Shown here: in pieces, positions 18,918 through 49,643 of the stretch
How the letters are laid out: the number at the start of each line of letters is the position of its first letter
Numbering within the stretch: position 1 is the stretch's first letter
Source of the DNA: an uncultured bacterium
GTDB lineage: Bacteria > Patescibacteriota > JAHJAL01
NCBI GenBank assembly: GCA_938004065.1
Contig: CALKWM010000020.1
Coordinates: 1,813 to 65,812, forward strand
Length of the DNA: 64,000 nt
Reading direction: 5' to 3'
The notes under the pieces: model-generated
The model's database searches: none
Seen by the model: the letters and a program-made list of their open reading frames with translations, nothing else
What the model was told of the DNA's origin: nothing
Translations under genes and position numbers: made by a program

Positions 18918-19056
18918 CCGCGTGTATGAGAAGTTTCGCCGACTTCCTTATCGTTTATTATAAAGGAGGCGAAATTTGGGTGAAAGAAAAAATGCAACCT
19001 TTAAAAATTATTAACGCACTTTTTCTTGAACCTCATACACTCTGTTATATGCTGTA
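18918..19056 (+). repeat. Structured repeat module B, copy 2
   Basis: About 95% identical to copy 1. Confidence 0.8.
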
Positions 19057-19060
19057 TTTT

Positions 19061-19351: not shown

Positions 19352-19379
19352 AATTTTTTAAGTTAAATGGTAAAAAATA

Positions 19380-19544
19380 TTGCGTATAACGTGCCGCGGC
19401 TGATCCGATCGTGGCCAAAGGCCGCCGCAGGCGAGCCGATGGACATGTCGGATAGCCGCTGTTAGACGACGTCGCGGAGCGACGGAGGATAACGGGGGCG
19501 AAGCCGCGGCACGTTAGACAACGAGCGAAGCGATGTTGGCTAAC
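19380..19544 (+). repeat. GC-rich palindromic repeat module A, copy 3
   Basis: Same sequence as copy 2. It lies 110 bp upstream of the tyrosine recombinase gene. Confidence 0.85.
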
Positions 19545-19653
19545 TAGTATATATACGAAAAGTTTATCTTATAATATACTGAAAATAGTAGTGTATAAGT
19601 TTATCAAGTAAATATTTATTATTTATCTTAATTTTACATTTTTGTAATACTGT

Positions 19654-20466: not shown

Positions 20467-20590
20467 GCCAAAATACCAAGCGAAAAAAGCATAAGAAAGA
20501 ACAAGAAATTTCGATTCCAATTGCTATGTGACTGGGTTGTTAAAAAATACCCCAAATGTCGGGTGGCGGATGTGGGTGGCGGAGTTTTTT
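20462..20590 (+). repeat. Direct repeat copy 1: truncated duplicate of the 5' end of the SAM-MTase gene, with a K-rich mini-ORF
   Basis: A 46-bp perfect core, ttatgagccaaaataccaagcgaaaaaagcataagaaagaacaagaa, followed by about 80% identity through gatgtgggtgg. It overlaps the recombinase stop codon. Confidence 0.8.
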
Positions 20591-20600
20591 TTAGTGTTAT

Positions 20601-21779
20601 TTATCTTATATCACCGCCCCAGATGTAGTCATCAAATTTGGGAACGTTTTTTCTGCCAATCAGATGGTATTTCTTGATGCCGGCTAAATTTGACAATTTG
20701 GATAATTTGGTTAGATCGTTTTTTGTTGGTGATTCTTTTAATTCTAGAGATACTTTTTTATCCAAGATAAAATCTATCTCATTTCCATTTTTCAATGCAT
20801 AGTAGCGGATATCACCAAAGTGCCGGATCTGATTAAAAAAGGCATTTTCAAATTTTGAACCGCTGTTATTTTCCGATAGAATATTTAATAGTCCATTGTC
20901 GCAAAAATATACTTTTTTTGCTTTTACTATTTCGCGATCAAAGTTATGTGTATGAACGGGCACACGATAAATTAAATAGGTTTTTTCGAAAAATTCCAGA
21001 TATTCTTCAACTGTGTGACGTGATAGATTGGTCAATCTAGCTAGTTTGTTATAATCAAGGCGAGTACCTACTCTTGAAGCAAGCATTTTGATTAAGCTGA
21101 AAATTTCTTTATCTTTACGAAAATCAGAAAGTGATTTGATATCGATATTTACATAAGAACTAATAATATCGTTTAATAATTCTTTTTTTAAATCTTTTTT
21201 CTTGGTTAATACAACTTCGGGAAATCCGCCGAAATTGATGAATTCTTCATAGTAGAATTTTAGTCTTTCATATTCAAATTCAGAGAAATTTTTAGCAAAA
21301 GATTTTTTCTCTTGGTGATAGATTTCTTTGAAGGTTAAAAATTCGCCAAAATCCAAGGGGAACATATCAAAAACAATCTTTCTACCGGCAAGAGATTGGG
21401 TAAAAAGATTTTTAAGATAATATGAACTGGAGCCGGTAACCAAAAATTTAATGTTATGGTGGTCGTAAAGATATTTTATAATACTAGTGATGTTTGGTAA
21501 AAACTGGATTTCGTCGATGGCCAGATAAATTTTCTTTTTTGGATCTATTCCCATCCGGGCAAGATCTAGTAAGATATTGTCATAATTTTTTTGGTCAAAA
21601 ATACCTCGGTCAGACAATTTTTCCAAATCGAAATATGCCTTATTTTCGGATTTAATTTCTGATAAAAGTTGTTTTAATATAGTAGTTTTACCGACTCGTC
21701 TAATACCAGTTATTACAATTACCTGTTTTGCACTAATGTATTTCTGAATTTTTTGGTAGATTTTTCGTGGAAATATCAT
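20601..21779 (-). CDS. AAA+ ATPase of the AAA_14/DUF4143 family
   Basis: Walker A motif VITGIRRVGKTT is present. The length and organisation are typical of AAA_14 + DUF4143 proteins. Confidence 0.7.
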   Translation of the reverse strand: MIFPRKIYQKIQKYISAKQVIVITGIRRVGKTTILKQLLSEIKSENKAYFDLEKLSDRGIFDQKNYDNILLDLARMGIDPKKKIYLAIDEIQFLPNITSIIKYLYDHHNIKFLVTGSSSYYLKNLFTQSLAGRKIVFDMFPLDFGEFLTFKEIYHQEKKSFAKNFSEFEYERLKFYYEEFINFGGFPEVVLTKKKDLKKELLNDIISSYVNIDIKSLSDFRKDKEIFSLIKMLASRVGTRLDYNKLARLTNLSRHTVEEYLEFFEKTYLIYRVPVHTHNFDREIVKAKKVYFCDNGLLNILSENNSGSKFENAFFNQIRHFGDIRYYALKNGNEIDFILDKKVSLELKESPTKNDLTKLSKLSNLAGIKKYHLIGRKNVPKFDDYIWGGDIR

Positions 21780-21919
21780 ATTTTTTGTTATTATTAAAAT
21801 ATAAGTATATTGTAACTTTAGTAATACTATTTAGTCAATGGGATTGCAGGTGTTTTTTTATGATATCTTGTAGTTATTAATCGGAGTGAATATTTACAAA
21901 ATTACTAGAGGTTGATGAG

Positions 21920-22047
21920 TTATGAGCCAAAATACCAAGCGAAAAAAGCATAAGAAAGAACAAGAAGTTTCGGTTCCAGTTACTGAGTGACTGGATTGTT
22001 TCTAAATATCCAGAATGCAAGGTAGCCGATGTGGGTGGAGGTAAAGG
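21920..22047 (+). repeat. Direct repeat copy 2 (intact 5' end of the SAM-MTase gene)
   Basis: Same 46-bp core. It encodes the mini-ORF MSQNTKRKKHKKEQEVSVPVTE, followed out of frame by the MTase N-terminus. Confidence 0.8.
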
Positions 22048-33760: not shown

Positions 33761-35269
33761 TTACTTTGTGGATAAATCTTGGAGTTTGTACGAACACTCT
33801 TTAGCCTGCAGAAGCAGATCAAAGGGTGTTTTTAGTTTGTAGATTATGTTTCCATCTTTCAGTTGCAAGTTCGAAAATACGAATTTAAGTAATTGCCGTT
33901 TTTTGTCTATTTCCGAACTTTTGGCAAAAATTTGAGGGGCTTTGGAACAGACATTAAGCAGGAAGGTAACGGATTTTACGAATTTTTCGTCAGCTTCAGT
34001 ATGATCTTTCATAGACTGGGTAATTTCATATTGTCTATTTTTTAAATCTTTGGCTTTTTTGTCATATTGGTCCTGAGTAATACTCCTATTAATACATAGG
34101 TCCAAAAGAGTGTCGAGCGATAATTGAATTTTGCTGTATTCGGTTTGAAGATGAGTAATGCTATTTTTATGATATTCAATTTTGGCTTTGTGAGTTTGGT
34201 TGATTTGATTGATTAGATCAGCAAGGATGTCGTCTGGAATGACTAACAGATTAAGGATTCTATTAATTTCCTTTAGTAATTGTTTTTCTTCTATTCGAAT
34301 AGCTCCGTGTTTACCTTTTGATTCCGTGCATTTAAGGTAGATATATTTGTTTTTCTTTTTATCTGATGAAATAGCACAACCGCAGTTGGCGCAGGTCATC
34401 ATGCCACGACCTAGTATTGATTCGTATTTAGTGGACCACTTGAAAGGTTGTTTATGGTATCCCAGAATCACATCTTGGCATTTATCAAATAATTCTTTTG
34501 TAATTAAATTGCCGTGATAATGGGGATATAATTTTCCTTTGATTCTCATTTCCCCATAATAAAAGGGATTTGAAAGCATGCGATTGATTTGGCTATGAGC
34601 AAGAGGTTTTCTGGATGGACCTCTATTGGTTAATCCTTTCTTTTTCATTAATGTCGCTAATCCACGGACAGAATAGTTGCCGGTTGAGTATAGTTGAAAT
34701 ATTTCTTTGATTAGATAAGCTCGTTCTGAGTCGATAATGATAGATGTTTTATTTGTAAGAGGGTCTCTAGTATTTAGATAGCCGATGGGTGCTGTAGTTA
34801 TCCATTCGCCTTTTTTTATTTTTCCTTCTTGAGCTCGTTTGGTATTGTCACTGATTGCATCTGAGTAATATTTGGCTAGACCTAAATTTATTGTAAAATG
34901 AAACTTTTCGACGGCGGATATATTTGAGTTAATAACAAGGTTGTCTGAAACAAAATGCATTTCAATTTTGTCCTGCATCGTCATTTCGTAGAGATTAGCT
35001 ATTCTTTTATCGAATACATTTCTGGAAAATCTATCGACTTTATCAAAACAAACAATAATTTTTTCTTTTTGTTTTTTAATATAATCTATCATATTGTCAA
35101 AATCGTCTCTTTTACCTTTGTATGCTCCTTCGTCAAAACTGAATTTTTTCATTATTGAAAATTCTTTTCGTTGGCAATAAGCGATCATTCGATCGGTTTG
35201 GGCTGGTAAGGAATTACCGGCGTCTTTTTGTTCCTCAGTGGACACTCTAGCTAGTATGACGGCTTTCAT
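33761..35269 (-). CDS. Large serine recombinase (resolvase/integrase)
   Basis: The N-terminal resolvase catalytic domain is MKAVILARVSTEEQ...DRFSRNV. It is followed by a recombinase domain, the zinc ribbon CANCGCAI and a C-terminal coiled coil. The start is moved to MKAVIL. Confidence 0.85.
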   Translation of the reverse strand: MKAVILARVSTEEQKDAGNSLPAQTDRMIAYCQRKEFSIMKKFSFDEGAYKGKRDDFDNMIDYIKKQKEKIIVCFDKVDRFSRNVFDKRIANLYEMTMQDKIEMHFVSDNLVINSNISAVEKFHFTINLGLAKYYSDAISDNTKRAQEGKIKKGEWITTAPIGYLNTRDPLTNKTSIIIDSERAYLIKEIFQLYSTGNYSVRGLATLMKKKGLTNRGPSRKPLAHSQINRMLSNPFYYGEMRIKGKLYPHYHGNLITKELFDKCQDVILGYHKQPFKWSTKYESILGRGMMTCANCGCAISSDKKKNKYIYLKCTESKGKHGAIRIEEKQLLKEINRILNLLVIPDDILADLINQINQTHKAKIEYHKNSITHLQTEYSKIQLSLDTLLDLCINRSITQDQYDKKAKDLKNRQYEITQSMKDHTEADEKFVKSVTFLLNVCSKAPQIFAKSSEIDKKRQLLKFVFSNLQLKDGNIIYKLKTPFDLLLQAKECSYKLQDLSTK

Positions 35270-35369
35270 TTTGTAAAAAGTGATTATTGGTATAAAATTG
35301 AAGTAGTGTTTATAATCTAATGTTATCAAATGTTATCATTTTTATCAAAATTGTAAAGCGTTTATATAT

Positions 35370-36619: not shown

Positions 36620-39600
36620 ATGAATAAAGTATTAGACAATAAAAAATCCAAAGTATCGGATGTGTTGCTGACTGAAATTGCCAAAGACGCAAAGATGTCG
36701 GTTGTATCCGCCTATTTTACAATATATGCTTTTGAGAAATTGAAAGAATCATTGTCGAAAATTGATTCTTTGCGGTTTTTGTTTGTGGAGCCGACTTTTA
36801 CCAAGGAGCAAGAAGAGATTCGGGAGTTTTATATCGACAAGCTCAATCGTGAAAAGCAATTGTCGGGAACGGAATATGAGATCAAGTTGAGAAATGAATT
36901 GACTCAGTCCAAAGTGGCGAAGGAATGTGCTGATTGGATAAGAAATAAAGTAGATTTTCGATCATTGAAGAAATCAGATCTTTCGCGGGCGAGAGCAATT
37001 CATGTCCAGAATCCTGATTCGGAGTTTATCGTGCAAGGAACGCTTGATTTTACTTCATCCGGATTGGGTTTTTCTACTTCCAACAAACTGGAAATGAATG
37101 TTTATTCTGATGATCAAGATGCAACCAAAGATATGTTGTCGTGGTTTGATGAAATTTGGAATAATGACAAGATGGTGGAGGATGTCAAAGAAGAGGTTTT
37201 AAAGAGTATTCAAACTATCTACAAAGAAAATACACCGGAGTTTGTTTATTTTGTTACTTTGTATAATTTATTTAAGAATTATCTGGATGAGTTGACGGAA
37301 GAAAATATTATCAAGTCGAGGACCGGTTTCAAGGATACGCTGATTTGGAATAAGTTATACAAGTTTCAGAAGGATGGAGTAATGGGAGTGATTGATAAGT
37401 TAGAAAAACACAATGGATGTATTTTGGCGGATAGTGTGGGTTTGGGAAAGACTTTTGAAGGTTTGGCGGTAATTAAATATTATGAATTGCGCAATCATCG
37501 AGTATTGGTTTTGTGTCCGAAAAAATTGAGGGACAATTGGATGATGTATCGGGCAAATGATGTGAGAAATGTTTTGGCAAATGATCGTTTTGGGTATGAT
37601 ATTTTGAATCATACTGATTTGAGTCGGACAAAGGGATTTTCCGGTGATATCAATTTGAGTACAGTGAATTGGGGTAATTATGATTTGGTCCTGATTGATG
37701 AATCGCATAATTTTAGAAATAATGATTCGCTAAAAAATAAAAAGACCAGATACAGAAGATTGATGGAAGATATTATTAGAAGCGGGGTCAAAACCAAGGT
37801 ATTGATGTTGTCGGCGACGCCGGTCAACAATCGGATGAATGATCTGAAGAATCAAATTGCTTTTATAACTGAGGCGAATGATAGCGCTTTGGTCCAAAAT
37901 GGAATTGTAAGCATTGGTAATACATTGAGAGTAGCTCAATATCAGTTTAATAAATGGCTGGAAAAACCGGTGGAAGAGCGAGGACTAGAATCGTTGTTGG
38001 CCAATCTGAATGTGGATTATTTCAAACTGTTGGATGCTTTGACGATTGCTCGTTCACGTAAACATATCGAGAAGTATTATGATTTGACGGAAGTGGGTAA
38101 ATTTCCGGACCGGTTGAAACCAAAAAATGTTAAAGCAAAAGTTGATTTGATTGGTGATTTTCCTAGTTTTGAAAATATTAATGATTCTATCAAACGATTG
38201 TCCTTGGCGATATATTCTCCTTTGCAATATGTGCGCTCGGATAAGGTCAAAAAATATCAAGAGAGATATGATATGGCGGTCAAAGATGGCACATCGACTT
38301 TCAAACAAACTGATCGTGAGAAAAATATTGTCAATTTGATGCGGGTAAATATTTTGAAGAGATTGGAAAGCTCAATTTATTCATATAATTTGACTTTGGG
38401 CAGATTGGCGGAAAAAATATCATCTTTACTGGCGACGATTGATTCATTTTCGGAATCGGAAAAATATGATTTGGATTTGGATGACGCGCCGGAAAGTATC
38501 GATGGTGATGATGAGCAATTGGAAGCGATGACGATTGGAAATAAAATAAGTGTGGAATTGGGTGATATGGATTTGATTCGATGGAAAGAAGATTTGGTGG
38601 ATGATTTGACGAGATTAAATGAATTGATAGAACAATCAAAACCGATTACGGCGGAAAGAGATGCAAAATTGGCGGAGCTAAAGAAATTGATTGCTGAAAA
38701 AATAAATAATCCAATCAATGATGGTAATAAGAAGATTGTAATTTTCAGTGCATTTGCTGATACGGCAGAGTATTTATACAAAGATATAGCTATCTGGGCG
38801 CAGGATACATTTAAAATTCATTCAGCCTTGGTAACCGGCGGAGGGTCTAATCAAACTACTTCCAAAGGAATTCAAACAGATTTGGGTAGTGTTTTGACCA
38901 ATTTTTCGCCGATATCAAAAGAGAAAGAAAAAATATATCCGGATGTCAAAGATGAGATAGATATTTTGATTGCTACTGATTGTGTATCGGAGGGTCAAAA
39001 TTTACAGGATTGTGATTGTTTGGTGAATTATGATATTCATTGGAATCCGGTTCGGATTATCCAAAGGTTTGGGCGTATTGATCGTATCGGATCAAAAAAT
39101 GATCGAATACAACTGGTGAATTTTTGGCCGGATATGGAACTGGATTCTTATATCAATCTGGAGCAACGGGTGCGAGGCAGAATGATTTTACTCAATGCTA
39201 ATGCGACTGGCGAGGAAGATATTATCAATGAGACTGACAAGGATGTGATGAATGATATTGAGTATCGCAAGAATCAATTGACGAGGTTGCAAGAAGAGGT
39301 ATTGGATCTGGAAGATATTTCCGGTAATATTTCGATTACTGATATGACGATGAATGATTTTAAGATGGATTTGATGGAGTATTTGAAAGATAATCGGAAA
39401 ATATTGGAGCAGGCTTCATTGGGAATGTATGCGATTGTGCCGAAAATTGATGCGATGGAAGAATTGTCATCCGGAGTTATTTTTACTTTGCGACAGGTGG
39501 ATTTTTCGGAGGCTAAATCGGGTGAGGCCAATGCTTTGCATCCATACTACATGGTTTATATTAGTGACGAAGGAGAAGTGAAATTAACTTATTTGCAGGC

Positions 39601-39877
39601 CAAGTATATTTTGGATATTTTCAAGAAGCTGTGCAATGGTGATGATGTTGTTCATCGAGATTTGGTGGAATTATTCAATCGGGAAACAAAGGAAGCCAAG
39701 GAGATGTACCATTATTCTCAATTACTTAAAGAATCGATTGAGCATATTATTGGAGAGAAGCAGGAAAAAGGCATGGGAGAACTTTTTGGCAGTCTGGGCA
39801 AGACTAATATCGCCAAAGACTCTTCACTGTCTTGGATTGATGATTTTGAGTTGATCTCATTTTTGATAATTAAATAA
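36620..39877 (+). CDS. SNF2/SWI2 helicase with N-terminal degenerate PLD-like domain
   Basis: Helicase motifs present are LADSVGLGKTFEGLAV, VLIDESHNFRNN, LMLSATPVNN and EGQNLQDCDCLVNYDIHWNPVRIIQRFGRIDRIGS. The N-terminal region aligns to the PLD domain of ORF 9828..13262, but the HKD motif reads AIHVQNPDSEFIVQGTLDFTSSG, with K changed to Q and GSxN degenerate. Confidence 0.8.
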   Translation: MNKVLDNKKSKVSDVLLTEIAKDAKMSVVSAYFTIYAFEKLKESLSKIDSLRFLFVEPTFTKEQEEIREFYIDKLNREKQLSGTEYEIKLRNELTQSKVAKECADWIRNKVDFRSLKKSDLSRARAIHVQNPDSEFIVQGTLDFTSSGLGFSTSNKLEMNVYSDDQDATKDMLSWFDEIWNNDKMVEDVKEEVLKSIQTIYKENTPEFVYFVTLYNLFKNYLDELTEENIIKSRTGFKDTLIWNKLYKFQKDGVMGVIDKLEKHNGCILADSVGLGKTFEGLAVIKYYELRNHRVLVLCPKKLRDNWMMYRANDVRNVLANDRFGYDILNHTDLSRTKGFSGDINLSTVNWGNYDLVLIDESHNFRNNDSLKNKKTRYRRLMEDIIRSGVKTKVLMLSATPVNNRMNDLKNQIAFITEANDSALVQNGIVSIGNTLRVAQYQFNKWLEKPVEERGLESLLANLNVDYFKLLDALTIARSRKHIEKYYDLTEVGKFPDRLKPKNVKAKVDLIGDFPSFENINDSIKRLSLAIYSPLQYVRSDKVKKYQERYDMAVKDGTSTFKQTDREKNIVNLMRVNILKRLESSIYSYNLTLGRLAEKISSLLATIDSFSESEKYDLDLDDAPESIDGDDEQLEAMTIGNKISVELGDMDLIRWKEDLVDDLTRLNELIEQSKPITAERDAKLAELKKLIAEKINNPINDGNKKIVIFSAFADTAEYLYKDIAIWAQDTFKIHSALVTGGGSNQTTSKGIQTDLGSVLTNFSPISKEKEKIYPDVKDEIDILIATDCVSEGQNLQDCDCLVNYDIHWNPVRIIQRFGRIDRIGSKNDRIQLVNFWPDMELDSYINLEQRVRGRMILLNANATGEEDIINETDKDVMNDIEYRKNQLTRLQEEVLDLEDISGNISITDMTMNDFKMDLMEYLKDNRKILEQASLGMYAIVPKIDAMEELSSGVIFTLRQVDFSEAKSGEANALHPYYMVYISDEGEVKLTYLQAKYILDIFKKLCNGDDVVHRDLVELFNRETKEAKEMYHYSQLLKESIEHIIGEKQEKGMGELFGSLGKTNIAKDSSLSWIDDFELISFLIIK

Positions 39878-39878
39878 A

Positions 39879-40670
39879 ATGAAGGAACGGGTAATACAAT
39901 TGTTGGGATTGAGACGGGATAAGATTTTGCAAGATGCCAAGATTGCCAAGAGTAAATTTTATGAGTTGGATGATTTTGATAATAAAAAGAAAAGGATTTT
40001 TACTGATGAGATAGAGGAAATTACTTTGTTGGCGATTCTCAATGAGGATACGATCAATATTGCTTCCCACAAAGACAATGAGGTGAATTATAGTGAGGTT
40101 TATTTTGTTTATGTAGAATTGAAGAAGGTGAATAGTGTTGTCGGTATAATCGAGGCGATGCAAAAGAATATTCCCAATCCGGTGGTGTTGATTTTTGGTT
40201 GGCATGACAAGATTTGTGTGGCGACGGCGCGGAAGCGGTTGAGTTTGAATGAGAAGGGCAAACAGGTGATCGAGAGTGAGCAGATAACCGGTTGGCTGTC
40301 ATTGGTGGAGTCGACACAGTTGGAAAAAGAATATTTGGGAGGTCTGAATATAGCCAATTTTTCTTTTTTGAATTTGTACGATTTTTATCAGGAATTTTCG
40401 TTGTACGTCTATCAGTCTATTTTGTTGTCATTTGTGTCGGAATTTCATTTTTATAAAAGTTTAGTTATTGAGGATATAAAGCCGAATATTGATAGGTATT
40501 TGGCTAAGCAAGCGGAAGTGAAACGATTGCGGGAGGAAGAATCGGCGACGATAAATTTTGGGGACCGGATTGCGATTCATCAAAGATTGATTCAGGCAGA
40601 GAAAGAGGAGGGGGAATCAAAGGAATTGATTAAAAAGATGTTTGAGAAAAATTTAGATAATGGTAAATAA
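39879..40670 (+). CDS. DUF4391-like protein, assigned by size and context
   Basis: A 263-aa ORF immediately after the SNF2 gene and overlapping the Mod start. This is the position DUF4391 proteins occupy in SNF2/Type III-like loci. The call is not verifiable without a profile search. Confidence 0.4.
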   Translation: MKERVIQLLGLRRDKILQDAKIAKSKFYELDDFDNKKKRIFTDEIEEITLLAILNEDTINIASHKDNEVNYSEVYFVYVELKKVNSVVGIIEAMQKNIPNPVVLIFGWHDKICVATARKRLSLNEKGKQVIESEQITGWLSLVESTQLEKEYLGGLNIANFSFLNLYDFYQEFSLYVYQSILLSFVSEFHFYKSLVIEDIKPNIDRYLAKQAEVKRLREEESATINFGDRIAIHQRLIQAEKEEGESKELIKKMFEKNLDNGK

Positions 40671-42630
40671 TAACAATATGAAAAAAATTGATGGTAAGAC
40701 AAGTGATTTGATTGGAGAAAATATTGAGAAGTTGAAACAACTTTTTCCTGAGATCTGGGAGGAGGGGAAAGTTGATTTTGAAATGTTGAAAAAGATATTG
40801 GGTGAGAAAGTGGAAACGGAGCGGGAGAGATATAGTTTTACTTGGCATGGCAAGTCGGACGCGATCCGGATGGCTTTGAAACAATCGACGGGGACTTTGA
40901 GGCCGAAGAAGGCGGAGAGTAAGAATTGGGATAAGACGAATAATCTGTATATTGAGGGTGATAATCTGGAGGTGTTGCGGGTGTTGCAGGATAGTTATCG
41001 AGGGAAGGTGAAGATGATTTATATTGATCCGCCGTACAATACGGGGAAGGATTTTGTGTATGAGGATGATTTTGCGGATAATATCAAGAATTATAAGGAG
41101 AAGGTGGGGGATAGTTTGAAGGCAAATGCGGATTCTAGTGGGCGGAAGCATACGAATTGGTTGAATATGATGTATCCGCGGTTGCGGTTGGCGAGGAATT
41201 TGTTGAAGGATGATGGGGTGATTTTTATTTCGATTGATGATAATGAGCAGGCGAATTTGAAGAAGGTTTGTGATGAGATTTTTGGGGAGGAGAATTTTGT
41301 TTCATTATTTCCACGAATAACAAAAAAAGCTGGTAAGACTACTGAAGGTGTTGCAAAAAATAATGATTATATACTTTGTTATGGCAGAATAGCTAATATG
41401 GTTAAATTTAATTCTTTTGAAATTAACGATGATGGTTATAAACATATAGATGAACACGAGGCGCTTAGAGGTAAGTATAAATTGAGTCAGACACTTGATT
41501 ACGGTTCGATACAGTATTCACCATCTTTAGATTATGAAATAGAAATAGATGGACATATTTTGAGACCGGGAGGAGTATCGAGGGAAGAAATGGAAGAACG
41601 AAAAAAACGGAATCCTTCGAGTGATTTTTGTTGGAGGTGGTCTAGTGATTTATATAAATTTGGCTTAAAAGAAGGTTTTATTGTTTTGAGGAAATCTAAG
41701 GATGGATATAGAATTTATACAAAAACTTATGAAAATGTTTTCATAAACAAGAATCAAGATGGTTATTATTTAGAAGAAAAAGAGCGAACAAAATTAGTAA
41801 CATCTTTGGATTTTGTTGAAAATAAATATTCGAACGATAATTCTAGAAAAGATTTAGCAAATATTTTCGATTCGAATGTTTTTGATTATTCAAAGCCAAT
41901 TTCATTATTAAAAATACTTACTTATTTAGCAACCGAAAAATTTGATTTTGTTTTCGATTTTTTCTCTGGTTCGGCAACTACTGCTCAGGCGGTGATGCAG
42001 TTGAATGCGGAGGATGGGGGGAATAGGAAGTTTGTTATGGTCCAGTTGTTGGAAGTTACGTCGGAGGATAGTGAGGCGAGAAAGGCGGGGTATAAGAATA
42101 TTTGTGAGATTGGGAAGGAGAGGATTAGGCGGGCGGGGGAGAAGATTGTGAATGAGTTGAGGGAGAAGCAGACGGGGCAGGGGAAGTTGATTGATAATGG
42201 GGAGAAGGTTGTCGATCCGGATGGTTTGGATATTGGGTTTAAAGTGTTTGAGTTGGATGAGACCAATTTTACGCAGTGGGACGCGAATACGCAGGATATT
42301 GAGAAGTCTTTGATGGATCAGTTGACACCGATCAAGATGGACCGAACGGATGAGGATGCGGTTTATGAGATTATGTTGAAATATGGAGTTGATTTGACAA
42401 TGCCGATTGAGGAGCTGGGGTTGGCGGGAAAGAAAGTTTTTTCGTTAGCCGGTAATTATCTTTTGATTTGTTTGGAGAAGCAGATTGGTTTGGAGACGGT
42501 TGAGGAAATGGCGAAGCTGAGTCCGCATCGGGCGGTTTTTTATGATGATGGTTTTGCGGATGATACGGTTAAAGCCAACGCGGAGCAGACTTTGAAGAAG
42601 GCGGGGGTTGAGGAGATATTGGTGATTTAA
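40660..42630 (+). CDS. Type III restriction-modification Mod-like N6-adenine DNA methyltransferase
   Basis: MIYIDPPYNTGKDFVYEDDF (motif IV DPPY) precedes the C-terminal FFSGSATTAQA (motif I). This beta-like order and the length are typical of Mod proteins. Confidence 0.85.
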   Translation: MVNNNNMKKIDGKTSDLIGENIEKLKQLFPEIWEEGKVDFEMLKKILGEKVETERERYSFTWHGKSDAIRMALKQSTGTLRPKKAESKNWDKTNNLYIEGDNLEVLRVLQDSYRGKVKMIYIDPPYNTGKDFVYEDDFADNIKNYKEKVGDSLKANADSSGRKHTNWLNMMYPRLRLARNLLKDDGVIFISIDDNEQANLKKVCDEIFGEENFVSLFPRITKKAGKTTEGVAKNNDYILCYGRIANMVKFNSFEINDDGYKHIDEHEALRGKYKLSQTLDYGSIQYSPSLDYEIEIDGHILRPGGVSREEMEERKKRNPSSDFCWRWSSDLYKFGLKEGFIVLRKSKDGYRIYTKTYENVFINKNQDGYYLEEKERTKLVTSLDFVENKYSNDNSRKDLANIFDSNVFDYSKPISLLKILTYLATEKFDFVFDFFSGSATTAQAVMQLNAEDGGNRKFVMVQLLEVTSEDSEARKAGYKNICEIGKERIRRAGEKIVNELREKQTGQGKLIDNGEKVVDPDGLDIGFKVFELDETNFTQWDANTQDIEKSLMDQLTPIKMDRTDEDAVYEIMLKYGVDLTMPIEELGLAGKKVFSLAGNYLLICLEKQIGLETVEEMAKLSPHRAVFYDDGFADDTVKANAEQTLKKAGVEEILVI

Positions 42631-42640
42631 TAAAAAAAGT

Positions 42641-44323
42641 ATGAATCAAAAAGAAGTTGAAAATATATTGAATTTGCTACGAGAAAAGAATGAATTGTCT
42701 TATGTTGAGGCAAAGGATTCTTTAGCTGATAAAAATAAAATAGGCGAAACTATTTCTGCTTTGTGTAATTCGGCTAGCTATTCTGACCAAGAGTATGCTT
42801 ATTTGATTTGGGGGATTGAAGATACTACTTGGAATTTGGTTGATACCAAGTTTGATCTTGAAAAATGTGTGCAAGGTAAAAGCGGATTTATATACCCTCA
42901 AATTATTAGTGCATTTAATTATAAACCTAAGCTCAAATGTGGAGAATTTTGGGTTGACGGTAAACGATTATATGTTTTGCGGATCAAAAATGCTGGATCA
43001 AATCCGTTATATTTTAATAAAATTGCATATATCAGAATTGGAGAGGTTATTGATGAACTTTGTGATCATCCTGAAATACAAAAGTATTTGATAAACAAAG
43101 ATGTTGATTGGAGCGGCCAGGTACCTGAAGGTTCTGAGTTGGATTGGATAGATGAGAAGTCTTTTGATTCTTTGAGTGAGAAGTATTTCGATATTAAGGA
43201 AAACAAGAATAAACATTTAAATAAAGTGCAACTTCTGAATGCATTGTCTTTATTGGATAAGAATAATAAACCAAACAATACTTGTTTGTTATTTATTGGT
43301 AAAAAAGAGATTATTGATAAAGTTTTTGGTGGTAAAAATAAAATTACTTGGGTTTATAGAGATGAGTTGAATGATATTGAAGAGAGGGTGCCAGCTGGTG
43401 ATCAAAGTCGTCCGTTGATTTTGGGTTTGTACGAAATACTCAACAAGATAAATAAATTCAATGTTACTTTGCGCGATTTGGATTTATTCAGGAATGATGT
43501 GTTGCAATATGACAATAAAGCTATTGAAGAAATATTAGTGAATGCGATTGCTCACAGGGATTGGAATATTGATTTGTGGATTGAGGTAAAACAAACACCG
43601 ATTAGTTTGGAGATAATAAATCCTGGTCGTTTTAGAGCTGATTTAAACAAAGTCTTGTCGGAGAATAAAAGACCGGTTTATTTGAATAAAAATTTGGCAG
43701 AATTTCTAAGTCGTATAAACCTTATGGAAAAAGAGGGTGGTGGTTTAAGAAAAGTGTATGAATCTCAAATTAGAAAGGGATTAAGCGTTATTCCCAAGTT
43801 TGATAATGAAAGCGTAGAACCGAGAGTCGATTTTATTTTGAGTGGAAGAGTAAGAAATAATGATTTTGCTCGTTTTATGTTTTTGTCTAGAGATTTAACA
43901 CAGGACCAAGTTATTGTTTTAGATAAAATATATTCTGGAAAGAATATATTTGGAAAAGATGTCGACGAGCGAGAATTTAATATAGTGAGAAATTTAGTTA
44001 CTAAGACCGGAAAGGGTGGTTCGGTTTTGAAAATTCAAGAGGGAATATTAAAAAAATCAAAGTTGTATATTGATAGTTTTTCTAATACTTATGCTAGTAC
44101 TGGTACTTTGAGAACAATTATTTTAGATTATGCAAGTAAGGACGATCAATTTTCCGTTGTTGAAATTTATGGAATTTTAAAAGGAAAAAATAAGGCTTGG
44201 ATAAGACAAACTCTTATGAAAATGGTTAATGATGGTGTTTTGCGTAGAGTCCAAAGGGGTATCTATAGTCTAGTTAGGTTACCAAACAAACTAAACGGAA
44301 AAACTAACAAAGAAAATAACTAA
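42641..44323 (+). CDS. AlbA_2/Schlafen-like putative DNA-binding ATP-dependent regulator
   Basis: The N-terminal ELSYVEAKDSL...YLIWGIED matches the AlbA_2 (divergent Schlafen) domain. It sits between Mod and Res. Confidence 0.55.
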   Translation: MNQKEVENILNLLREKNELSYVEAKDSLADKNKIGETISALCNSASYSDQEYAYLIWGIEDTTWNLVDTKFDLEKCVQGKSGFIYPQIISAFNYKPKLKCGEFWVDGKRLYVLRIKNAGSNPLYFNKIAYIRIGEVIDELCDHPEIQKYLINKDVDWSGQVPEGSELDWIDEKSFDSLSEKYFDIKENKNKHLNKVQLLNALSLLDKNNKPNNTCLLFIGKKEIIDKVFGGKNKITWVYRDELNDIEERVPAGDQSRPLILGLYEILNKINKFNVTLRDLDLFRNDVLQYDNKAIEEILVNAIAHRDWNIDLWIEVKQTPISLEIINPGRFRADLNKVLSENKRPVYLNKNLAEFLSRINLMEKEGGGLRKVYESQIRKGLSVIPKFDNESVEPRVDFILSGRVRNNDFARFMFLSRDLTQDQVIVLDKIYSGKNIFGKDVDEREFNIVRNLVTKTGKGGSVLKIQEGILKKSKLYIDSFSNTYASTGTLRTIILDYASKDDQFSVVEIYGILKGKNKAWIRQTLMKMVNDGVLRRVQRGIYSLVRLPNKLNGKTNKENN

Positions 44324-44406
44324 AATACATTTTTACTCTGTTGCTGGACCTAACAGACTAAACTTGACTAAACAATTTATAAACATAATTATATATTTAT
44401 GTCAAT

Positions 44407-47400
44407 ATGACAAAATTAAAATTACAATTTGATGCCAATCAGGAATTTCAAAAACAAGCTGTGGATGCGATAGTTGATGTTTTTGACGGGCAACCTTTGA
44501 AGCAATCAAAGTTTACAGTATCGGTGGCGGATGGTTCGTTGTTTGGTAAGAATACGGAGTTGGGATATGCAAATAAGTTGGATTTGATACCGGAAGATTT
44601 GTTTAAGAATGTTATCAAGATTCAGGACCGGAATCATTTGAAAAGAAGTGAAGGTTTGTTGGATGCGGATTATGGAGTGCCAAACTTTGCGATTGAGATG
44701 GAGACGGGGACAGGCAAAACTTATGTATATACGCGGACGATATTGGAATTGAATAATAAATACGGTTTTACCAAATTTATCGTCGTGGTCCCGAGTGTGG
44801 CTATCCGTGAAGGTGTGAATAAATCTTTGGATATTACCAAGGATCATTTTGAAGAATTGTATCAAGGCCAGAAGTTCAATTATTTTGTGTATAATTCGGA
44901 TCGTTTGACGGAGGTGCGTAATTTTGCGACCAGTGATTCAATCGAAATTATGGTTATCAATATTGATGCATTTCGTAAAGGTTTTGAAGAGGATAACAAG
45001 AGTAACAAGAATGCGACAAGGATACACAAAGAACAGGACAAGCTGGAAGGGCGACGGCCGATTGAATTTATTCGTGATACCAATCCAATTGTGATTATTG
45101 ATGAGCCACAGTCGGTTGATAATACCGAGAAATCCAAAGAAGCAATCAAGGCGCTCAATCCAATGTGTATCGTGCGTTATTCGGCTACTCATAGAAATAC
45201 TTATAATCTGATGTATAGGCTTGGTCCGATCGAGGCTTATGAAAATAAATTGGTCAAAAAGATTGAAGTGGTAGCGGTGGAAGGAATAGGTAGTGGTCCG
45301 TATATGAAGTTGGAAAAAGTGCAAAAAGCGCCTAATGGATCGTATTCGGCGGATGTGGTATTGAGCGTGTTGGATAAAAAAGGCGAAGCAAAAACGAAGA
45401 GAGTAAAAATCAATACCGGTAAGCGTAAGAGTTTTTTTGATGTGTCTGGACAAAATGAGATATACAGAAATTATGTGGTAACAAATATCAGTATTGAATC
45501 CGGAATGGAATATATTGAGTTTGAGACGGGTGATATCTTGAAGCTGAATCAAAATACAGATGATTTGGAAATTAAGCGTACTCAAATCAGGTCCACTATC
45601 GAATCGCATTTGGAAAAGGAATTGAGATTGTTGGATAAAAATATCAAAGTCTTGTCACTTTTCTTTTTGGACCGAGTAAATAATTATCGAGAGTATCTTA
45701 ATGAAGGTGGATTCAAGAAGGGAAGATATGCGCAGATTTTTGAGGAAGAATATTTGAAGATAATTAAATTGCCAAAGTATAATCAACTTTTTGTAACTGA
45801 AAAATCCAAACAATATGCTTTGTGTGAGGATGTTGACAAGATTCATGATGGATATTTTGCGCAGGACAAGAAAGGTATATTCAAAGAATCGCGGGGTGAA
45901 GGTGCAAGTCAAGCGGATGAGAGCGCTTATGATTTGATTATGAAGGACAAAGAAACGCTTTTGAGTTTTGATACGCCATTGCGCTTTATTTTTTCACATT
46001 CGGCTTTGAAAGAAGGCTGGGACAATCCGAATGTGTTTCAGATTTGTACTTTGGTGGAGAGTGCGGACACTATGACCAAAAGACAGAAGGTGGGGCGTGG
46101 TTTGCGTTTGCCGGTCAATCAATCAGGAGAGCGGATATTTGATGACAATATCAATATTTTGACGGTGGTGGCTAATGAAAGTTACCATAGCTTTGCCGAG
46201 AATTTGCAAAAGGAGATTGAAAAAGATACCAATACCAAATTTGGAGTAGTGGAAGAGCGATTGTTTGAGAATATATTGTTCGAAAAAGAAGGGAAAGTCG
46301 GAGAGCTGGGATATGAAGAGTCAAAAGAAATATGTGAATATTTGAGAGAGCAAGGCTGGGTGGACAAAAATGGTAAGGTAAAGGACGAATTGAGGCAAAT
46401 AGTGGCTCGGGAAGAAAGTGGCGAAGATGCCTTGGTTTTGCCGATGAAGTTTGCGTCAATCAAAAAGAAAATAGTGGAACAGATAAAGACTACATTGAAA
46501 CGATTGCCAATAGTAGATAGCAAAAAGAAAGAAAAGGTATCGATCAATAAGCAGGTATTTATGAGTGATGATTTTGTGGAGTTGTGGAATAGGATCAAAT
46601 ACAAGACCGTCTATCATCTGGATTTTGATAGTAAAATATTGGTTGAAAATTGTATTCATGAGGTCCGAAAGATGCCGGAAATCAAATCAAATGCGATTGT
46701 GGCGCGCTGGATTGATTTGGAGATTAACAAAAGGGGTGTGACATTTAATGAACCAACAATGATTCGTAATTATGTGCGTGATAAATATGATCAAAAACAA
46801 TTGCCGGATATTTTGCGTTATGTTGCCACGTATACCGGACTCAAAAAACGATCGATTGCGGATATTTTACTAAGGTCCCAGACCATAGATGCTTTTTATA
46901 TCAATCCGCAAGAATACATGGAGCAAGTGATTCAGATAATCAATATTGAGAAAAGAAAGTTGATTGTGGACGGTATCAAGTATGACAAGATTTGTGACGA
47001 TGTTTTTTATCAGCAAGAATTGTTTGAAAATGAGGAGTTGATTGGTTATCTCAAGGACAATGCCATTCAGGTAGGAAAGAGTGTTTATTCTCATGTTATT
47101 TATGATTCAGATATAGAGATGACTTTTGCCGAAAGACTGGAAAATGATGCTGATGTAAAACTTTATGCCAAATTACCCGATTGGTTCAAAATTGAAACTC
47201 CATTGGGTGATTACAATCCGGATTGGGCGATTTTGCTGGAGAAGAATGGAGTAGAGAAATTGTATTTTGTGATCGAGACAAAAGGGTCTATTTTGTCGGA
47301 AGATTTACGACCGATAGAGCAGGGGAAGATAGAATGTGGACAGAAGCATTTTGAGGCGCTGGGGACCGGAGTGAAGTTTGAGAAGGTGAGGAGTTATGAG

Positions 47401-47418
47401 GAGTGGCGCAGTATATAA
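44407..47418 (+). CDS. Type III restriction enzyme Res subunit (SF2 helicase + PD-(D/E)xK endonuclease)
   Basis: Walker A is AIEMETGTGKTYVY and motif II is VIIDEPQS. The C-terminus has the Res endonuclease signature YFVIETKG. Confidence 0.85.
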   Translation: MTKLKLQFDANQEFQKQAVDAIVDVFDGQPLKQSKFTVSVADGSLFGKNTELGYANKLDLIPEDLFKNVIKIQDRNHLKRSEGLLDADYGVPNFAIEMETGTGKTYVYTRTILELNNKYGFTKFIVVVPSVAIREGVNKSLDITKDHFEELYQGQKFNYFVYNSDRLTEVRNFATSDSIEIMVINIDAFRKGFEEDNKSNKNATRIHKEQDKLEGRRPIEFIRDTNPIVIIDEPQSVDNTEKSKEAIKALNPMCIVRYSATHRNTYNLMYRLGPIEAYENKLVKKIEVVAVEGIGSGPYMKLEKVQKAPNGSYSADVVLSVLDKKGEAKTKRVKINTGKRKSFFDVSGQNEIYRNYVVTNISIESGMEYIEFETGDILKLNQNTDDLEIKRTQIRSTIESHLEKELRLLDKNIKVLSLFFLDRVNNYREYLNEGGFKKGRYAQIFEEEYLKIIKLPKYNQLFVTEKSKQYALCEDVDKIHDGYFAQDKKGIFKESRGEGASQADESAYDLIMKDKETLLSFDTPLRFIFSHSALKEGWDNPNVFQICTLVESADTMTKRQKVGRGLRLPVNQSGERIFDDNINILTVVANESYHSFAENLQKEIEKDTNTKFGVVEERLFENILFEKEGKVGELGYEESKEICEYLREQGWVDKNGKVKDELRQIVAREESGEDALVLPMKFASIKKKIVEQIKTTLKRLPIVDSKKKEKVSINKQVFMSDDFVELWNRIKYKTVYHLDFDSKILVENCIHEVRKMPEIKSNAIVARWIDLEINKRGVTFNEPTMIRNYVRDKYDQKQLPDILRYVATYTGLKKRSIADILLRSQTIDAFYINPQEYMEQVIQIINIEKRKLIVDGIKYDKICDDVFYQQELFENEELIGYLKDNAIQVGKSVYSHVIYDSDIEMTFAERLENDADVKLYAKLPDWFKIETPLGDYNPDWAILLEKNGVEKLYFVIETKGSILSEDLRPIEQGKIECGQKHFEALGTGVKFEKVRSYEEWRSI

Positions 47419-47454: not shown

Positions 47455-48138
47455 ATGGATTTTTTTATGGCAAAAATAGAGAAAATGAGCAAAATAACTG
47501 CAAAAATAAAATTTTATGATGAGGAAATTGCAGGGAGAGATTCATTTGAATCAGAAAGTCTTACAAAAAGATTTTTAGAAAACATGAAAAATTTTCTCTA
47601 TCCAGCAGAAGTTGATTACTTGGCTTATAAAATGTTGGTTGAAGATGATGTGTGTGTTATGGCATCAATGACCAATTATCAACAAGCTGTAGAAAAATAC
47701 TTAAGATTTATAAAGTTGTATTTTTATGGAAAAGAATGTCCAAAAAGTAAACAAGGACATATGTATGATGTGATTGTACAAGATACAGATTTGAATACTG
47801 TTATTCCGGATATTACCAGAAAAGAGTTTGTAAAAATATGTAATGAGTTTTCAAGTTGGAGGTATCTTGATTTTAATTCAACAGTAACAAAAGATTTAAT
47901 GAAGATGAACATAGTATTAGATCAGTTTGTGTATGAATTTTGGAAATTATTGTGTGGGTCGCGTGGATTCGTGTTGATGTATAAAACATGTATCATTTCT
48001 GGCAATCCTCATTCTTTTATTCTCCCGCGTATATATCAGACAAATGGAGATTTGAGAAAAAAATATTTAAATTTATTGAAGAGAGATAATCAATATTTTG
48101 AGAAAATGGAGGAATTGTTTAAAAATTATAAATTTTGA
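47455..48138 (+). CDS. Hypothetical protein
   Basis: A 227-aa ORF with no recognisable motif. Confidence 0.4.
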   Translation: MDFFMAKIEKMSKITAKIKFYDEEIAGRDSFESESLTKRFLENMKNFLYPAEVDYLAYKMLVEDDVCVMASMTNYQQAVEKYLRFIKLYFYGKECPKSKQGHMYDVIVQDTDLNTVIPDITRKEFVKICNEFSSWRYLDFNSTVTKDLMKMNIVLDQFVYEFWKLLCGSRGFVLMYKTCIISGNPHSFILPRIYQTNGDLRKKYLNLLKRDNQYFEKMEELFKNYKF

Positions 48139-48147
48139 GGAGATAGA

Positions 48148-48468
48148 ATGAACTATGAAGAGTTAGTTTTGAAGGTTTTATATGAAAAACCCAATAAACC
48201 AGAAAATGTTGTTAAAAGTAAGCATGTTAAATTTGAAGAGTTGAAGATTGCATGTTTTGGTGATGATAATGTGCCGGATTCTAAATTGCTTGATTATGAA
48301 AGTATAGTAGAGCCTTTATTGGATGATTTGAGAAATCTTGAAAATAAAGGATTGATAAAAAATAATTGGCTTGGAGAGAATGTAATTGAACCACTTAGCA
48401 CTTTTATTACTGAAAGAGGAATAAAATACTATACTGATATGTTTTTGGAAGAGAGCTATGATGAGTAG
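48148..48468 (+). CDS. Hypothetical protein
   Basis: A 106-aa ORF with an RBS-like GAGGAG upstream. Confidence 0.4.
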   Translation: MNYEELVLKVLYEKPNKPENVVKSKHVKFEELKIACFGDDNVPDSKLLDYESIVEPLLDDLRNLENKGLIKNNWLGENVIEPLSTFITERGIKYYTDMFLEESYDE

Positions 48469-49643
48469 TATTTATGAATAGTGTAGTATTTGAATTGTTG
48501 TTCTCTTAGATTAGATAGTTTTGTAGGTGTAAACTCTTGCAATTGTTTTTCAACATCGATTAATAAATTATATTTTCCATTTTTTGGGATATTGAGATTG
48601 GATAATTTTCTTTTCAATTTATACCAATAAGAGTGGTTCCGAGCTGTGTCGATGATGTTTCTGAGTTGATTGTGACTGCTGGAATTGATGGCAGTGATTG
48701 CTCCGGATAATTCTAGAATCTGTCTTGCTTTGAGACTCGGATTATTTGTTTTTATTATTTCCATGGTCTCGATTGGTGATTTGCCGCTAAGTAGTAGCAT
48801 TTCTTTGTTTTTGGTCAGTTCTTGCCAGAAGTATTGGAGGACCTTTTGGGATGTGCTTTGTTTAAATAACTGCTTGAAGGTTAAGATTTGGTCAATGCTG
48901 TTTTCTTTGAGGATGCTTTTGATTTTGGCTGTTTTGTTTAGTCTTATTTCTAGTCTCAAAATATTTCTAAATTTAGGTTGGTTTATTTCATCGAGAAGAT
49001 TTAGTTGAATGGAATTGTCATTTTCGATTGCTCTTTTATCTGAGGTTTGGGCTTGTTCGAGATCCTTGATTTTGTCATAAATAACTATTTCATAACTATT
49101 GGCGTGCAATTGAAAAGATTGTCCGCCATTTCTGAATATGACTTTGTTTTCCGTTAGTCTGGGAAATGGATTTAGTTTATGTAATTCAGTGATGATCATG
49201 GGAGGAGTGGTGTGATAGGGTAGGGGAATATTTTTTGAGTAATGGATAGCGGTAACCGGAGCATTATCTAAATGATGATCAAATAATCTAATACCCATAT
49301 TATCGAGAGTGTCTTTTAGTAATTGGAAAATTTTTGGATAGTCCGCATCCGTAAGTTCGTCAAAATTATTTTTGTATAACAGTTTTGGAAGTGATAATTC
49401 GATTCTTAGCTTGATAATTGGTCCGAATAATCCCATTACTGCAATCAAGGTAATTCTTGGTTTATAAATTCTTGAGCGCAATTCTTGTTTGGTTGGATTT
49501 TGGATCCATTTCTTGTTTTGTCGATGTTTAAGATGGCTTATTTCTTCTGAAAAAAGTTTGCTATTGGTATATGGGGAAAATTTACCATAGTCCCAGATTG
49601 AAAACCAATTAATTGGGAATGTTAAAACTATCGTATCGATCAT
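48456..49643 (-). CDS. Rolling-circle replication initiator, Rep_trans family (pT181 RepC / phage CRI-like)
   Basis: KVIFRNGGQSFQLHANSYEIVIYDK matches the Rep_trans catalytic Tyr block (cf. ...YFG....RFIRIYNK). LRLEIRLNK matches the conserved WRVEIELKR block. Confidence 0.55.
   Translation of the reverse strand: MIDTIVLTFPINWFSIWDYGKFSPYTNSKLFSEEISHLKHRQNKKWIQNPTKQELRSRIYKPRITLIAVMGLFGPIIKLRIELSLPKLLYKNNFDELTDADYPKIFQLLKDTLDNMGIRLFDHHLDNAPVTAIHYSKNIPLPYHTTPPMIITELHKLNPFPRLTENKVIFRNGGQSFQLHANSYEIVIYDKIKDLEQAQTSDKRAIENDNSIQLNLLDEINQPKFRNILRLEIRLNKTAKIKSILKENSIDQILTFKQLFKQSTSQKVLQYFWQELTKNKEMLLLSGKSPIETMEIIKTNNPSLKARQILELSGAITAINSSSHNQLRNIIDTARNHSYWYKLKRKLSNLNIPKNGKYNLLIDVEKQLQEFTPTKLSNLREQQFKYYTIHKYYSS

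Follow-up and report, generated by a model that had tools for sequence, protein, structure and literature searches.

A probable mobile cassette derived from Type III restriction-modification systems that joins SNF2 and DUF4391 genes to mod and res

INTRODUCTION

Classical Type III restriction-modification (R-M) systems have two subunits, Mod and Res, which hemimethylate asymmetric sites and cut DNA only when two unmethylated sites are present in inverse orientation. Phages exploit this two-site requirement, a recognized weakness of the systems. The Type IV enzyme SauUSI acts autonomously; its HKD site is active, and it has a target-recognition domain of its own. Here, we analyzed a locus in which genes for a Type III pair stand together with genes for a SNF2-family ATPase and a DUF4391 protein. 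The locus occupies positions 36620-47418 of a 64,000-nucleotide stretch of DNA from an uncultured bacterium of the Patescibacteriota (GenBank assembly GCA_938004065.1, contig CALKWM010000020.1), and this whole stretch is referred to below as the window. The locus is probably a mobile, Type III-derived R-M cassette with the composition SNF2 (carrying an inactive phospholipase D [PLD]-fold domain), DUF4391, Mod, and Res, often accompanied by a small helix-turn-helix (HTH) protein; the window copy carries an AlbA_2 guest in addition.

Two other defense systems share parts with this locus. MANTIS/Gao_RL (DUF499-centered, BREX-related type 2) is a four-gene, methylation-based system that needs two ATPases; it comprises a methyltransferase (MTase), a small DUF protein, a PLD-SF2 motor, and a second ATPase, and its restriction is stimulated by inverted site pairs (bioRxiv 10.64898/2026.09.23.753747; PMC12839542). 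MADS consists of eight genes, of which MAD6 to MAD8 are mandatory and the HTH gene MAD1 is accessory, and the text of the preprint that describes it mentions no helicase, SNF2, or Type III (preprint 10.1101/2023.03.30.534895). A preliminary description of the window had regarded the mechanism as uncharacterized, and our literature search found no paper that names or tests the SNF2-DUF4391-Mod-Res architecture, although a paper in a subscription journal may have been missed. The block is nevertheless visible in public records, where automatic annotation routinely labels its products "helicase-related protein," "DUF4391 domain-containing protein," "site-specific DNA-methyltransferase," and "DEAD/DEAH box helicase family protein."

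RESULTS

Four genes recur in one order in distant lineages

Five + strand open reading frames (ORFs) make up the locus (Table 1). They were listed, translated, and profile-searched against Pfam, NCBIfam, PADLOC, and PDB sequences. The listing recovered all five ORFs of the preliminary description, and the genes were tightly spaced or overlapping, as it had stated: 1 nt separates the SNF2 and DUF4391 genes, the DUF4391 and mod genes overlap by 11 nt, and gaps of 10 and 83 nt precede the AlbA_2 gene and res, respectively. A sixth gene, which that description had overlooked, belongs to the unit; it encodes a 69-aa HTH protein and ends 54 nt upstream of the SNF2 gene.

Related loci were collected by searches seeded with the DUF4391, Res, and AlbA_2 proteins; a pattern scan of genome contigs alone gave 4 loci. 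SNF2, DUF4391, Mod, and Res genes were found in one order and orientation at 24 loci from Patescibacteria, Melainabacteria, Dehalococcoides, Bacillota, Alpha- and Gammaproteobacteria, and one archaeon. Those on chromosomes or in metagenome-assembled genomes (MAGs) were the window, L002 (Patescibacteria MAG), L003 to L005 (Melainabacteria/Vampirovibrionia MAGs), and L009 and L010 (Dehalococcoides mccartyi chromosomes), to which two Escherichia coli chromosomes are added; L011 to L014 were metagenome contigs. Plasmid loci came from Providencia, Vibrio, Shewanella, Acinetobacter, Enterococcus hirae, Enterococcus faecium, Bacillus cereus, E. coli, Phaeobacter, and Sulfitobacter, and from the archaeon Methanomethylovorans. 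The identity of the small gene was confirmed with the DUF4391 hidden Markov model (HMM) in all 21 full-order loci that were then in the set. Mod-Res was present at every DUF4391-seeded locus, and the first three Res-seeded loci opened (37-43% identity) all had SNF2 and DUF4391 genes upstream. No SNF2-DUF4391 pair lacking Mod-Res was found among the sampled loci, a sample seeded with the module's own proteins. Judged by gene order, the four genes are clearly inherited together across several bacterial phyla and one archaeon, and the survey upheld the earlier suggestion that SNF2 and DUF4391 elaborate a Type III system.

In most loci, the stop of the SNF2 gene and the start of the DUF4391 gene were 1 nt apart or overlapped by 4-8 nt, which suggests translational coupling. 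The overlap between DUF4391 and mod was seen in the window and also in L020, the B. cereus locus. Identities to the window were calculated for 22 full-unit loci (L027 and L030 were left out) and amounted to 46-84% for SNF2, 37-96% for Res, 39-74% for Mod, and 22-72% for DUF4391, which is the fastest evolving of the four genes. Similarity to the window was correlated between SNF2 and Res (rank correlation, rho 0.79; 20 loci that are not mutually independent). In L002, the closest relative, identity was uneven along the unit (Res, 96%; HTH, 94%; SNF2, 84%; DUF4391, 72%; Mod, 66%), a mosaic that suggests recombination or a swap of recognition and adaptor parts between close elements.

The unit is also found in well-sampled bacteria. 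At least 88 of 5426 complete E. coli genomes had a homolog of the SNF2 gene, and 23 of the 88 contained at least 80% of the unit of strain NCTC11023. Among the full-length E. coli matches listed, all had an identical annotated block, and all but two included the small HTH gene. Full-length Res of the cassette clade was encoded in 146 plasmid records.

By sequence, Mod and Res form an orthodox Type III pair

The preliminary description had called the Type III pair canonical, and the profile searches bear this out. Mod matched N6_N4_Mtase (2.7e-29) and PADLOC MTase_III (2.9e-199). Its motifs are ordered as DPPY (motif IV, aa 123), a variable target-recognition region, and FFSGSA (motif I, aa 434); the DPPY reported earlier is thus present, whereas the "FxGxG" reported with it is actually F-x-G-x-A. 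The central region of Mod (aa ~210-397) was not conserved in L003 to L005. Res matched ResIII (2e-14), RE_endonuc (1.8e-39), PADLOC REase_III (E=0, 1017 bits), and the Res subunit of EcoP15I (4zcf_C, 7.6e-62), and it has the motifs GTGKT (aa 101), DEPQ (aa 232), SATH, NPDW (aa 937), and VIETKG (aa 955). Because its score with the NCBIfam equivalog PRK15483 (367 bits) is under the cutoff of 564, it represents a distinct Res subclade. From these matches, Mod and Res are read with confidence as orthodox Type III subunits whose catalytic motifs are intact.

In the Melainabacteria/Vampirovibrionia loci, a homopolymer of nine G residues splits mod into ORFs of 205 aa and ~420 aa (L004, 11946-11954; L003, 13322-13330; also L005). 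The tract lies at the position of "EIFGEENF" in the window Mod, which has no such tract. The split genes in L003 to L005 look like phase-variable Type III mod genes (phasevarions).

The SNF2 protein has a degenerate PLD-fold domain

The SNF2 protein matched SNF2-rel_dom (4e-13) and Helicase_C (4e-14) and was covered nearly from end to end by the PADLOC family "HKD+Snf2" (C3a139, PDLC01075; 1e-150, aa 1-1083 on model positions 1-946 of 948). C3a139 is a sequence family that occurs near some Type III CRISPR loci and has no assigned function (Shah et al. 2018, PMC6546367). The motifs GLGKT (aa 274), DESH (aa 360), SATP (aa 398), and QRFGRIDR (aa 815) were all found.

A PLD-fold domain forms the N-terminus (aa ~1-200, nt 36620-~37220), and its best structural match was SauUSI. 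We aligned the N-terminal 245 residues of the window protein with those of 42 database homologs (43 sequences). Part of the PLD signature, G-x-x-x-F-T-x-x-G-L-G, was kept across the family. The position of the catalytic His was occupied by H in 12 of the 43 sequences, by N in 14, and by Y in 8; at that of the catalytic Lys there was E, Q, or a gap, and K in a single sequence (1/43). A precomputed PLDc_2 match was present for 6 of the 120 homolog fragments listed. The protein thus combines intact ATPase motifs with a PLD-fold domain that has lost its catalytic His and Lys across the family, in agreement with the earlier description of the domain as dead. A paralog elsewhere in the window (Table 1), 28-31% identical, keeps an intact HKD motif (HAK...GSSNFT) and a Pfam PLDc_2 match.

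The 263-aa protein belongs to the DUF4391 family

The assignment of the 263-aa protein to DUF4391 had been put forward as a point on which the five-gene module could fail, and it was confirmed: the match to PF14335 (1.9e-36) scored 126.6 bits against a gathering cutoff of 29.9 and extended over model positions 10-231 of 232. In a confident predicted model, aa 1-165 make up an alpha/beta domain and aa 166-261 a long helical hairpin. D14, E73, K119, and R120 of DUF4391 are invariant. Comparison of this model with PDB by Foldseek gave nothing with E<0.02, and the weak top matches were Brix-domain proteins (TM<=0.16). We also considered a PD-(D/E)XK fold for the alpha/beta domain and dropped it, as the order of strands and helices did not fit.

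The family is large, with at least 2000 clusters at 50% identity at E<=1e-3 and 1120 at E<=1e-10. PADLOC has no DUF4391 model, a pattern scan of viral contigs and a tblastn search of phage records found no DUF4391, and mentions of it in the literature were all irrelevant. In the cassette, it is a putative partner of the SNF2 protein. DUF4391 also occurs at the C-terminus of P0043, a 1419-aa database protein; this was examined as a possible SNF2-DUF4391 fusion and rejected, since its helicase is of the SF1 type (AAA_11/AAA_12), carries RNase_H_2, and is unrelated to the SNF2 protein of the cassette. A further database protein, P0081 (354 aa), has DUF4391 fused to a fragment of AlbA_2 and could be a gene-calling artifact.

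A small HTH gene often opens the unit

The 69-aa HTH gene is called, with HTH_17/MerR_1, in the annotation of the source assembly consulted for this purpose (GCA_036848155.1, contig DAIUKQ010000006.1). Its product scored 29.0 bits with TIGR01764 "excise" (cutoff, 28.8) and 16.4 bits with NCBIfam MADS1 (cutoff, 80), and it matched PADLOC mad1 at 6.3e-13. A small gene stood at the matching position in the Dehalococcoides, Providencia, Vibrio, Shewanella, Enterococcus, and E. coli loci. The conserved unit often begins with a small HTH gene, whose product is likely a transcriptional controller of the cassette. No convincing operator palindrome was found upstream of the HTH or SNF2 genes. Consensus scans gave promoter-like and terminator-like sites at chance levels (72 vs 67 expected and 6 vs 7.4 expected, respectively), and no Rfam family was found between 33 and 50 kb of the window.

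The AlbA_2 gene is an optional guest

The 560-aa protein encoded between mod and res matched SLFN_AlbA_2 (PF04326; 7e-10, 39.9 bits, cutoff 25.3), which agrees with its earlier assignment, and HATPase_c_4 (PF13749; 1.7e-8, 34.8 bits, cutoff 26). Its C-terminus gave winged-helix-like RQC (1.3e-3) and AbiEi-like matches that were under their cutoffs, and the protein also matched PDB 3lmm (4e-7) and PADLOC PDC-S50 (2.9e-6).

The gene is missing from most loci of the set, including L002, where 113 nt separate mod and res. Other genes occupy the same slot elsewhere: YhcG/DUF1016 in L004 and L005, DUF262 in the Rhizobium variant L025, and, in L003 (a Caenarcaniphilales MAG), a different AlbA_2/HATPase_c_4 protein that we take to be an independent insertion because it is only 29% identical over 86 residues. 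In L016 (Acinetobacter), the slot is a 1.7-kb gap without annotation. A second slot, between DUF4391 and mod, contained ORF6N, an AAA-ATPase/PDDEXK_9 protein, a hypothetical gene, or IS256. Among plasmid proteins, those most similar to AlbA_2 of the window were encoded on Phaeobacter porticola pP97_c and on a Sulfitobacter plasmid. The five-gene order of the window is found in both, and because this order recurs, AlbA_2 is regarded as a recurrent guest. A homolog is also found between hsdM and hsdS in an Aliarcobacter Type I operon. By this distribution, AlbA_2 is a recurrent optional passenger inserted just after methyltransferase genes and no fixed fifth subunit. The five-gene module of the preliminary description is therefore real as an order that recurs in two plasmids, but the place of AlbA_2 in its core is refuted by its absence from L002 and most other loci.

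The cassette resides on mobile elements

The stretch in which the window resembles L002 begins precisely with a large serine recombinase gene, which is 83% identical in L002 and next to the cassette there. This gene marks the left end of a mobile island. The Dehalococcoides copies likewise have a large serine recombinase beside them. The copy on the Acinetobacter gerneri plasmid (L016) is carried as cargo by a Tn7-like element (TnsA, Mu-type transposase, TniB, and TniQ), and several copies are on conjugative plasmids. The E. coli plasmid pLAO18 (L022), which encodes dnaE, a LAGLIDADG endonuclease, and a 5'-3' exonuclease, looks phage-plasmid-like. These contexts place the cassette on mobile elements.

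TABLE 1 Features of the window. Cassette genes are listed before neighboring features
Feature	Positions	Strand	Remarks
Small HTH protein, 69 aa	36356-36565	+	Excisionase/MerR type, MAD1-like
SNF2-family ATPase, 1085 aa	36620-39877	+	Predicted inactive PLD-fold N-domain, intact helicase motifs
DUF4391 protein, 263 aa	39879-40670	+	PF14335 match
Type III Mod, 656 aa	40660-42630	+	Beta-class N6-adenine DNA methyltransferase
AlbA_2 (Schlafen-like)/HATPase_c_4/C-terminal winged-helix protein, 560 aa	42641-44323	+	Optional guest, Mod-Res slot
Type III Res, 1003 aa	44407-47418	+	SF2 helicase-like ATPase, C-terminal PD-(D/E)XK endonuclease
Large serine recombinase	33761-35329	-	Resolvase, Recombinase, and Zn_ribbon_recom domains; left end of mobile island
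Two tandem paralogous ORFs, 159 and 161 aa	35370-36334	+	Family-less island cargo between recombinase and HTH genes
Three ORFs, 227 aa (+), 106 aa (+), and 395 aa (-)	47455-49643		Downstream of Res, no family match
Type IIG-like RE/MTase	6537-9824	-	PADLOC REase_MTase_IIG 1.7e-135
PLD-SNF2 paralog	9828-13262	-	PLDc_2 match
N6_N4 MTase	13775-14695	-	
GmrSD Type IV enzyme	14674-16362	-	
Further MTase	17360-18610	-	
Xer-like tyrosine recombinase	19654-20466		
AAA_14/DUF4143 protein	20601-21779		PADLOC PDC-S01 match

Surroundings of the cassette

Between the recombinase and HTH genes, the window has two tandem ORFs that matched nothing in Pfam, NCBIfam, PADLOC, or PHROGs. By eye, they share the pattern HHPAQIG[VI]E ... 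KD[VL][VI][IF]W ... [LM]EWK, which resembles a PD-(D/E)XK motif. Both are missing in L002, where the recombinase and HTH genes are 90 nt apart. The three ORFs downstream of Res are kept beside the cassette in L002, with 42-67% identity.

Restriction genes are abundant throughout the window, and a second restriction/defense cluster is present at 6537-18610 (- strand) and 20601-21779. The PLD-SNF2 paralog in this cluster and the neighboring large MTase may be an R-M-like pair. GC skew changes from ~-0.13 at 16-18 kb to +0.15 to +0.47 past 20 kb, and in the same region (~18000-22000), where a Xer-like tyrosine recombinase is encoded, the large ORFs change from the - to mostly the + strand. The switch fits a replication origin.

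DISCUSSION

We propose that SNF2 and DUF4391 probably assist the Mod-Res pair of this mobile cassette. Mod, probably a dimer as in EcoP15I, would read a short asymmetric site and hemimethylate host DNA. On unmethylated incoming sites, Mod-Res would rely on ATP-driven long-range communication, with the PD-(D/E)XK domain of Res as the sole cutter. The SNF2 and DUF4391 proteins would form a complex that translocates along double-stranded DNA at the expense of ATP and has no nuclease of its own. Such a motor could assist restriction as a moving collision partner or loader, or by removing DNA-bound proteins; it might relax the need for two inverted sites, or couple recognition to cleavage like the second ATPase in MANTIS. 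An adaptor or sensor surface is suggested for DUF4391 because it evolves fastest. The small HTH protein would set expression in the fashion of a controller protein, and AlbA_2 would be an independent add-on. With the nuclease role shifted to Res, the PLD domain would have been free to decay.

Several observations weigh against this proposal. A Staphylococcus epidermidis plasmid carries a plain Mod-Res pair whose Res is 37% identical to that of the window, so that the additional genes are dispensable for a working Type III core; because such relatives exist, SNF2 and DUF4391 are an add-on to a self-sufficient core, but both are present in most members of this Res clade that were sampled. Plasmid p7 of Rhizobium sp. 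NLR16a (L025, outside the 24 loci) has an HTH gene, an unrelated 949-aa SNF2 gene, Mod, DUF262, and Res, and an HMM check found no DUF4391 there; this Type III pair seems to have gained a SNF2 partner of another lineage in an independent event. On a Lactococcus plasmid, a SNF2 gene split by an insertion sequence is followed by a 185-aa ORF that is not DUF4391 by HMM. The fusion to an unrelated SF1 helicase in P0043 indicates that DUF4391 is perhaps not specific for the SNF2 protein of the cassette and may be a general partner of helicases. Since DUF4391 has no structural or functional relative, any role given to it is a guess, and a physical interaction between SNF2-DUF4391 and Mod-Res is inferred from gene order only. 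Finally, the loci were few and had been collected with proteins of the module itself as queries, which makes the sample blind to SNF2-DUF4391 pairs without Mod-Res.

Some of these points would also fit two independent systems that travel together, a self-contained SNF2-DUF4391 module and an ordinary Type III system made adjacent by defense-island clustering or co-mobilization. Plain Mod-Res pairs and the SF1 helicase fusion would then be expected, and the string is not rigid, as both the DUF4391-Mod and Mod-Res slots accept foreign genes. We nevertheless consider this unlikely. The order and orientation do not vary among the 24 loci, which come from widely separated lineages (one archaeon among them) and from mobile elements of very different kinds, and SNF2-DUF4391 without Mod-Res was not seen at any sampled locus. 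In addition, the divergence of SNF2 is correlated with that of Res, DUF4391 and Mod overlap in the window and L020, and a SNF2 protein minus its own nuclease would, alone, be without an evident effector. This lack of a nuclease would also fit a helper on the modification side, in which SNF2-DUF4391 would bring Mod onto host DNA or activate it there and balance methylation against cutting, like MtsA/MtsB in MANTIS. The DUF4391 gene lies directly upstream of mod and overlaps it, and methylation by MANTIS needs an ATPase and a small DUF protein (bioRxiv 10.64898/2026.09.23.753747). Such a role seems improbable, however, given that Type III Mod methylates unaided (EcoP15I; PMC4490356), that Mod-Res relatives do without the add-on, and that the MANTIS loader is an AAA+ protein and not a SNF2 protein (PMC12839542).

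The extra genes might also serve the mobile element itself, through establishment, exclusion of competitors, or addiction, and be kept wherever the Type III pair is mobilized. Nearly all copies are indeed on a serine-recombinase island, a Tn7-like transposon, or a conjugative or phage-like plasmid, or beside insertion sequences. But the partnership is with Mod-Res and with no single type of element, the four genes persist while the elements differ, and SNF2 is strongly conserved across contexts (46-84% identity), all of which makes this explanation very hard to credit. A more far-reaching and tentative reading is that SNF2 and DUF4391 are obligate partners of this Mod-Res clade and that the four proteins form one widespread restriction machine, in which a translocase without a nuclease and a fast-evolving adaptor alter target finding or commitment. 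If this is true, the need for two inverted sites might, for example, be removed, or cleavage and methylation might be gated by a second ATPase, a mechanism unlike that of classical Type III systems and also unlike that of MANTIS/BREX-related systems.

The locus represents a Type III clade that is co-inherited with a second, predicted nuclease-less motor and with a protein that has no relative of solved fold. The clade is present in several bacterial phyla, one archaeon, E. coli genomes, and many clinical and dairy plasmids. A function for the add-on would extend the rule emerging from BREX, DISARM, and MANTIS that methylation-based defenses use paired ATPases; it would also give DUF4391 a role and explain a common unnamed block in defense annotations. 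Experimental work is feasible because intact copies exist in culture-collection E. coli strains, among them NCTC11023 (NZ_LS483297.1, 1324838-1334155) and NCTC9966.

Among known systems, MADS shares with the cassette a small upstream HTH protein of the MAD1 type, and the E. coli counterpart is annotated mads1 in RefSeq. Membership in MADS was rejected, as only the HTH protein is MAD1-like and it scores far below the NCBIfam MADS1 cutoff. For the five window proteins, no mad2 to mad8 was among the PADLOC matches listed (the best 25 families for SNF2 and Mod), and no MADS model was among the NCBIfam matches. The AlbA_2/HATPase_c_4 proteins of other R-M operons resemble that of the window in their domain string and in their place directly after a methyltransferase gene, as in the Aliarcobacter Type I operon; the host operon here is instead a SNF2-DUF4391 Type III cassette. 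Unlike SauUSI, the SNF2 protein has lost the HKD residues, and recognition would presumably occur via Mod.

Pfam searches of the five genes and flanking ORFs found neither DrmA nor DUF1998 (DrmB) genes, which belong to DISARM, and neither the DUF499 AAA+ ATPase (MtsA) nor DUF3780 (MtsB) of MANTIS. Class 1 DISARM is similar to the cassette in having a SNF2 helicase (DrmD), PLD-type chemistry, and an adenine methyltransferase, and the SNF2 protein gave partial matches to DrmD models. DISARM differs in having no Res and no DUF4391. With DrmA and DrmB missing and a score of 142 bits against the DrmD equivalog cutoff of 610, membership in class 1 DISARM was rejected. On B. cereus plasmid pJ75_1 (L020, 1-11479), drmA and a DUF1998 gene lead directly into SNF2, DUF4391, Mod, and Res genes on one strand. 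This locus could be a DISARM hybrid in which the cassette replaces DrmD, DrmMI, and DrmC.

The cassette resembles Type III R-M systems such as EcoP15I and EcoPI in the beta-class motif order of Mod, in a Res composed of an SF2 ATPase and a C-terminal PD-(D/E)XK domain, and in the position of mod upstream of res. It departs from them in the co-inherited SNF2 and DUF4391 genes (and the small HTH gene in many copies) and, in the window, in the guest that splits mod from res; compared with P1-type Res, its Res is ~30% identical over just 60% of the length. The closest characterized analog is MANTIS/Gao_RL, which likewise has a methyltransferase, a small protein of unassigned function, a PLD/SF2 helicase-like motor, and two ATPases. 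SauUSI, the best structural match of the cassette N-domain, is also a reported relative of MtsD. Membership in MANTIS was rejected on the lack of DUF499 and DUF3780 and on the rarity of the HKD His and Lys in the alignment. The PLD domain is active (H122) in MtsD and apparently dead here, where a Type III Res would serve as the nuclease and a Type III Mod as the methyltransferase.

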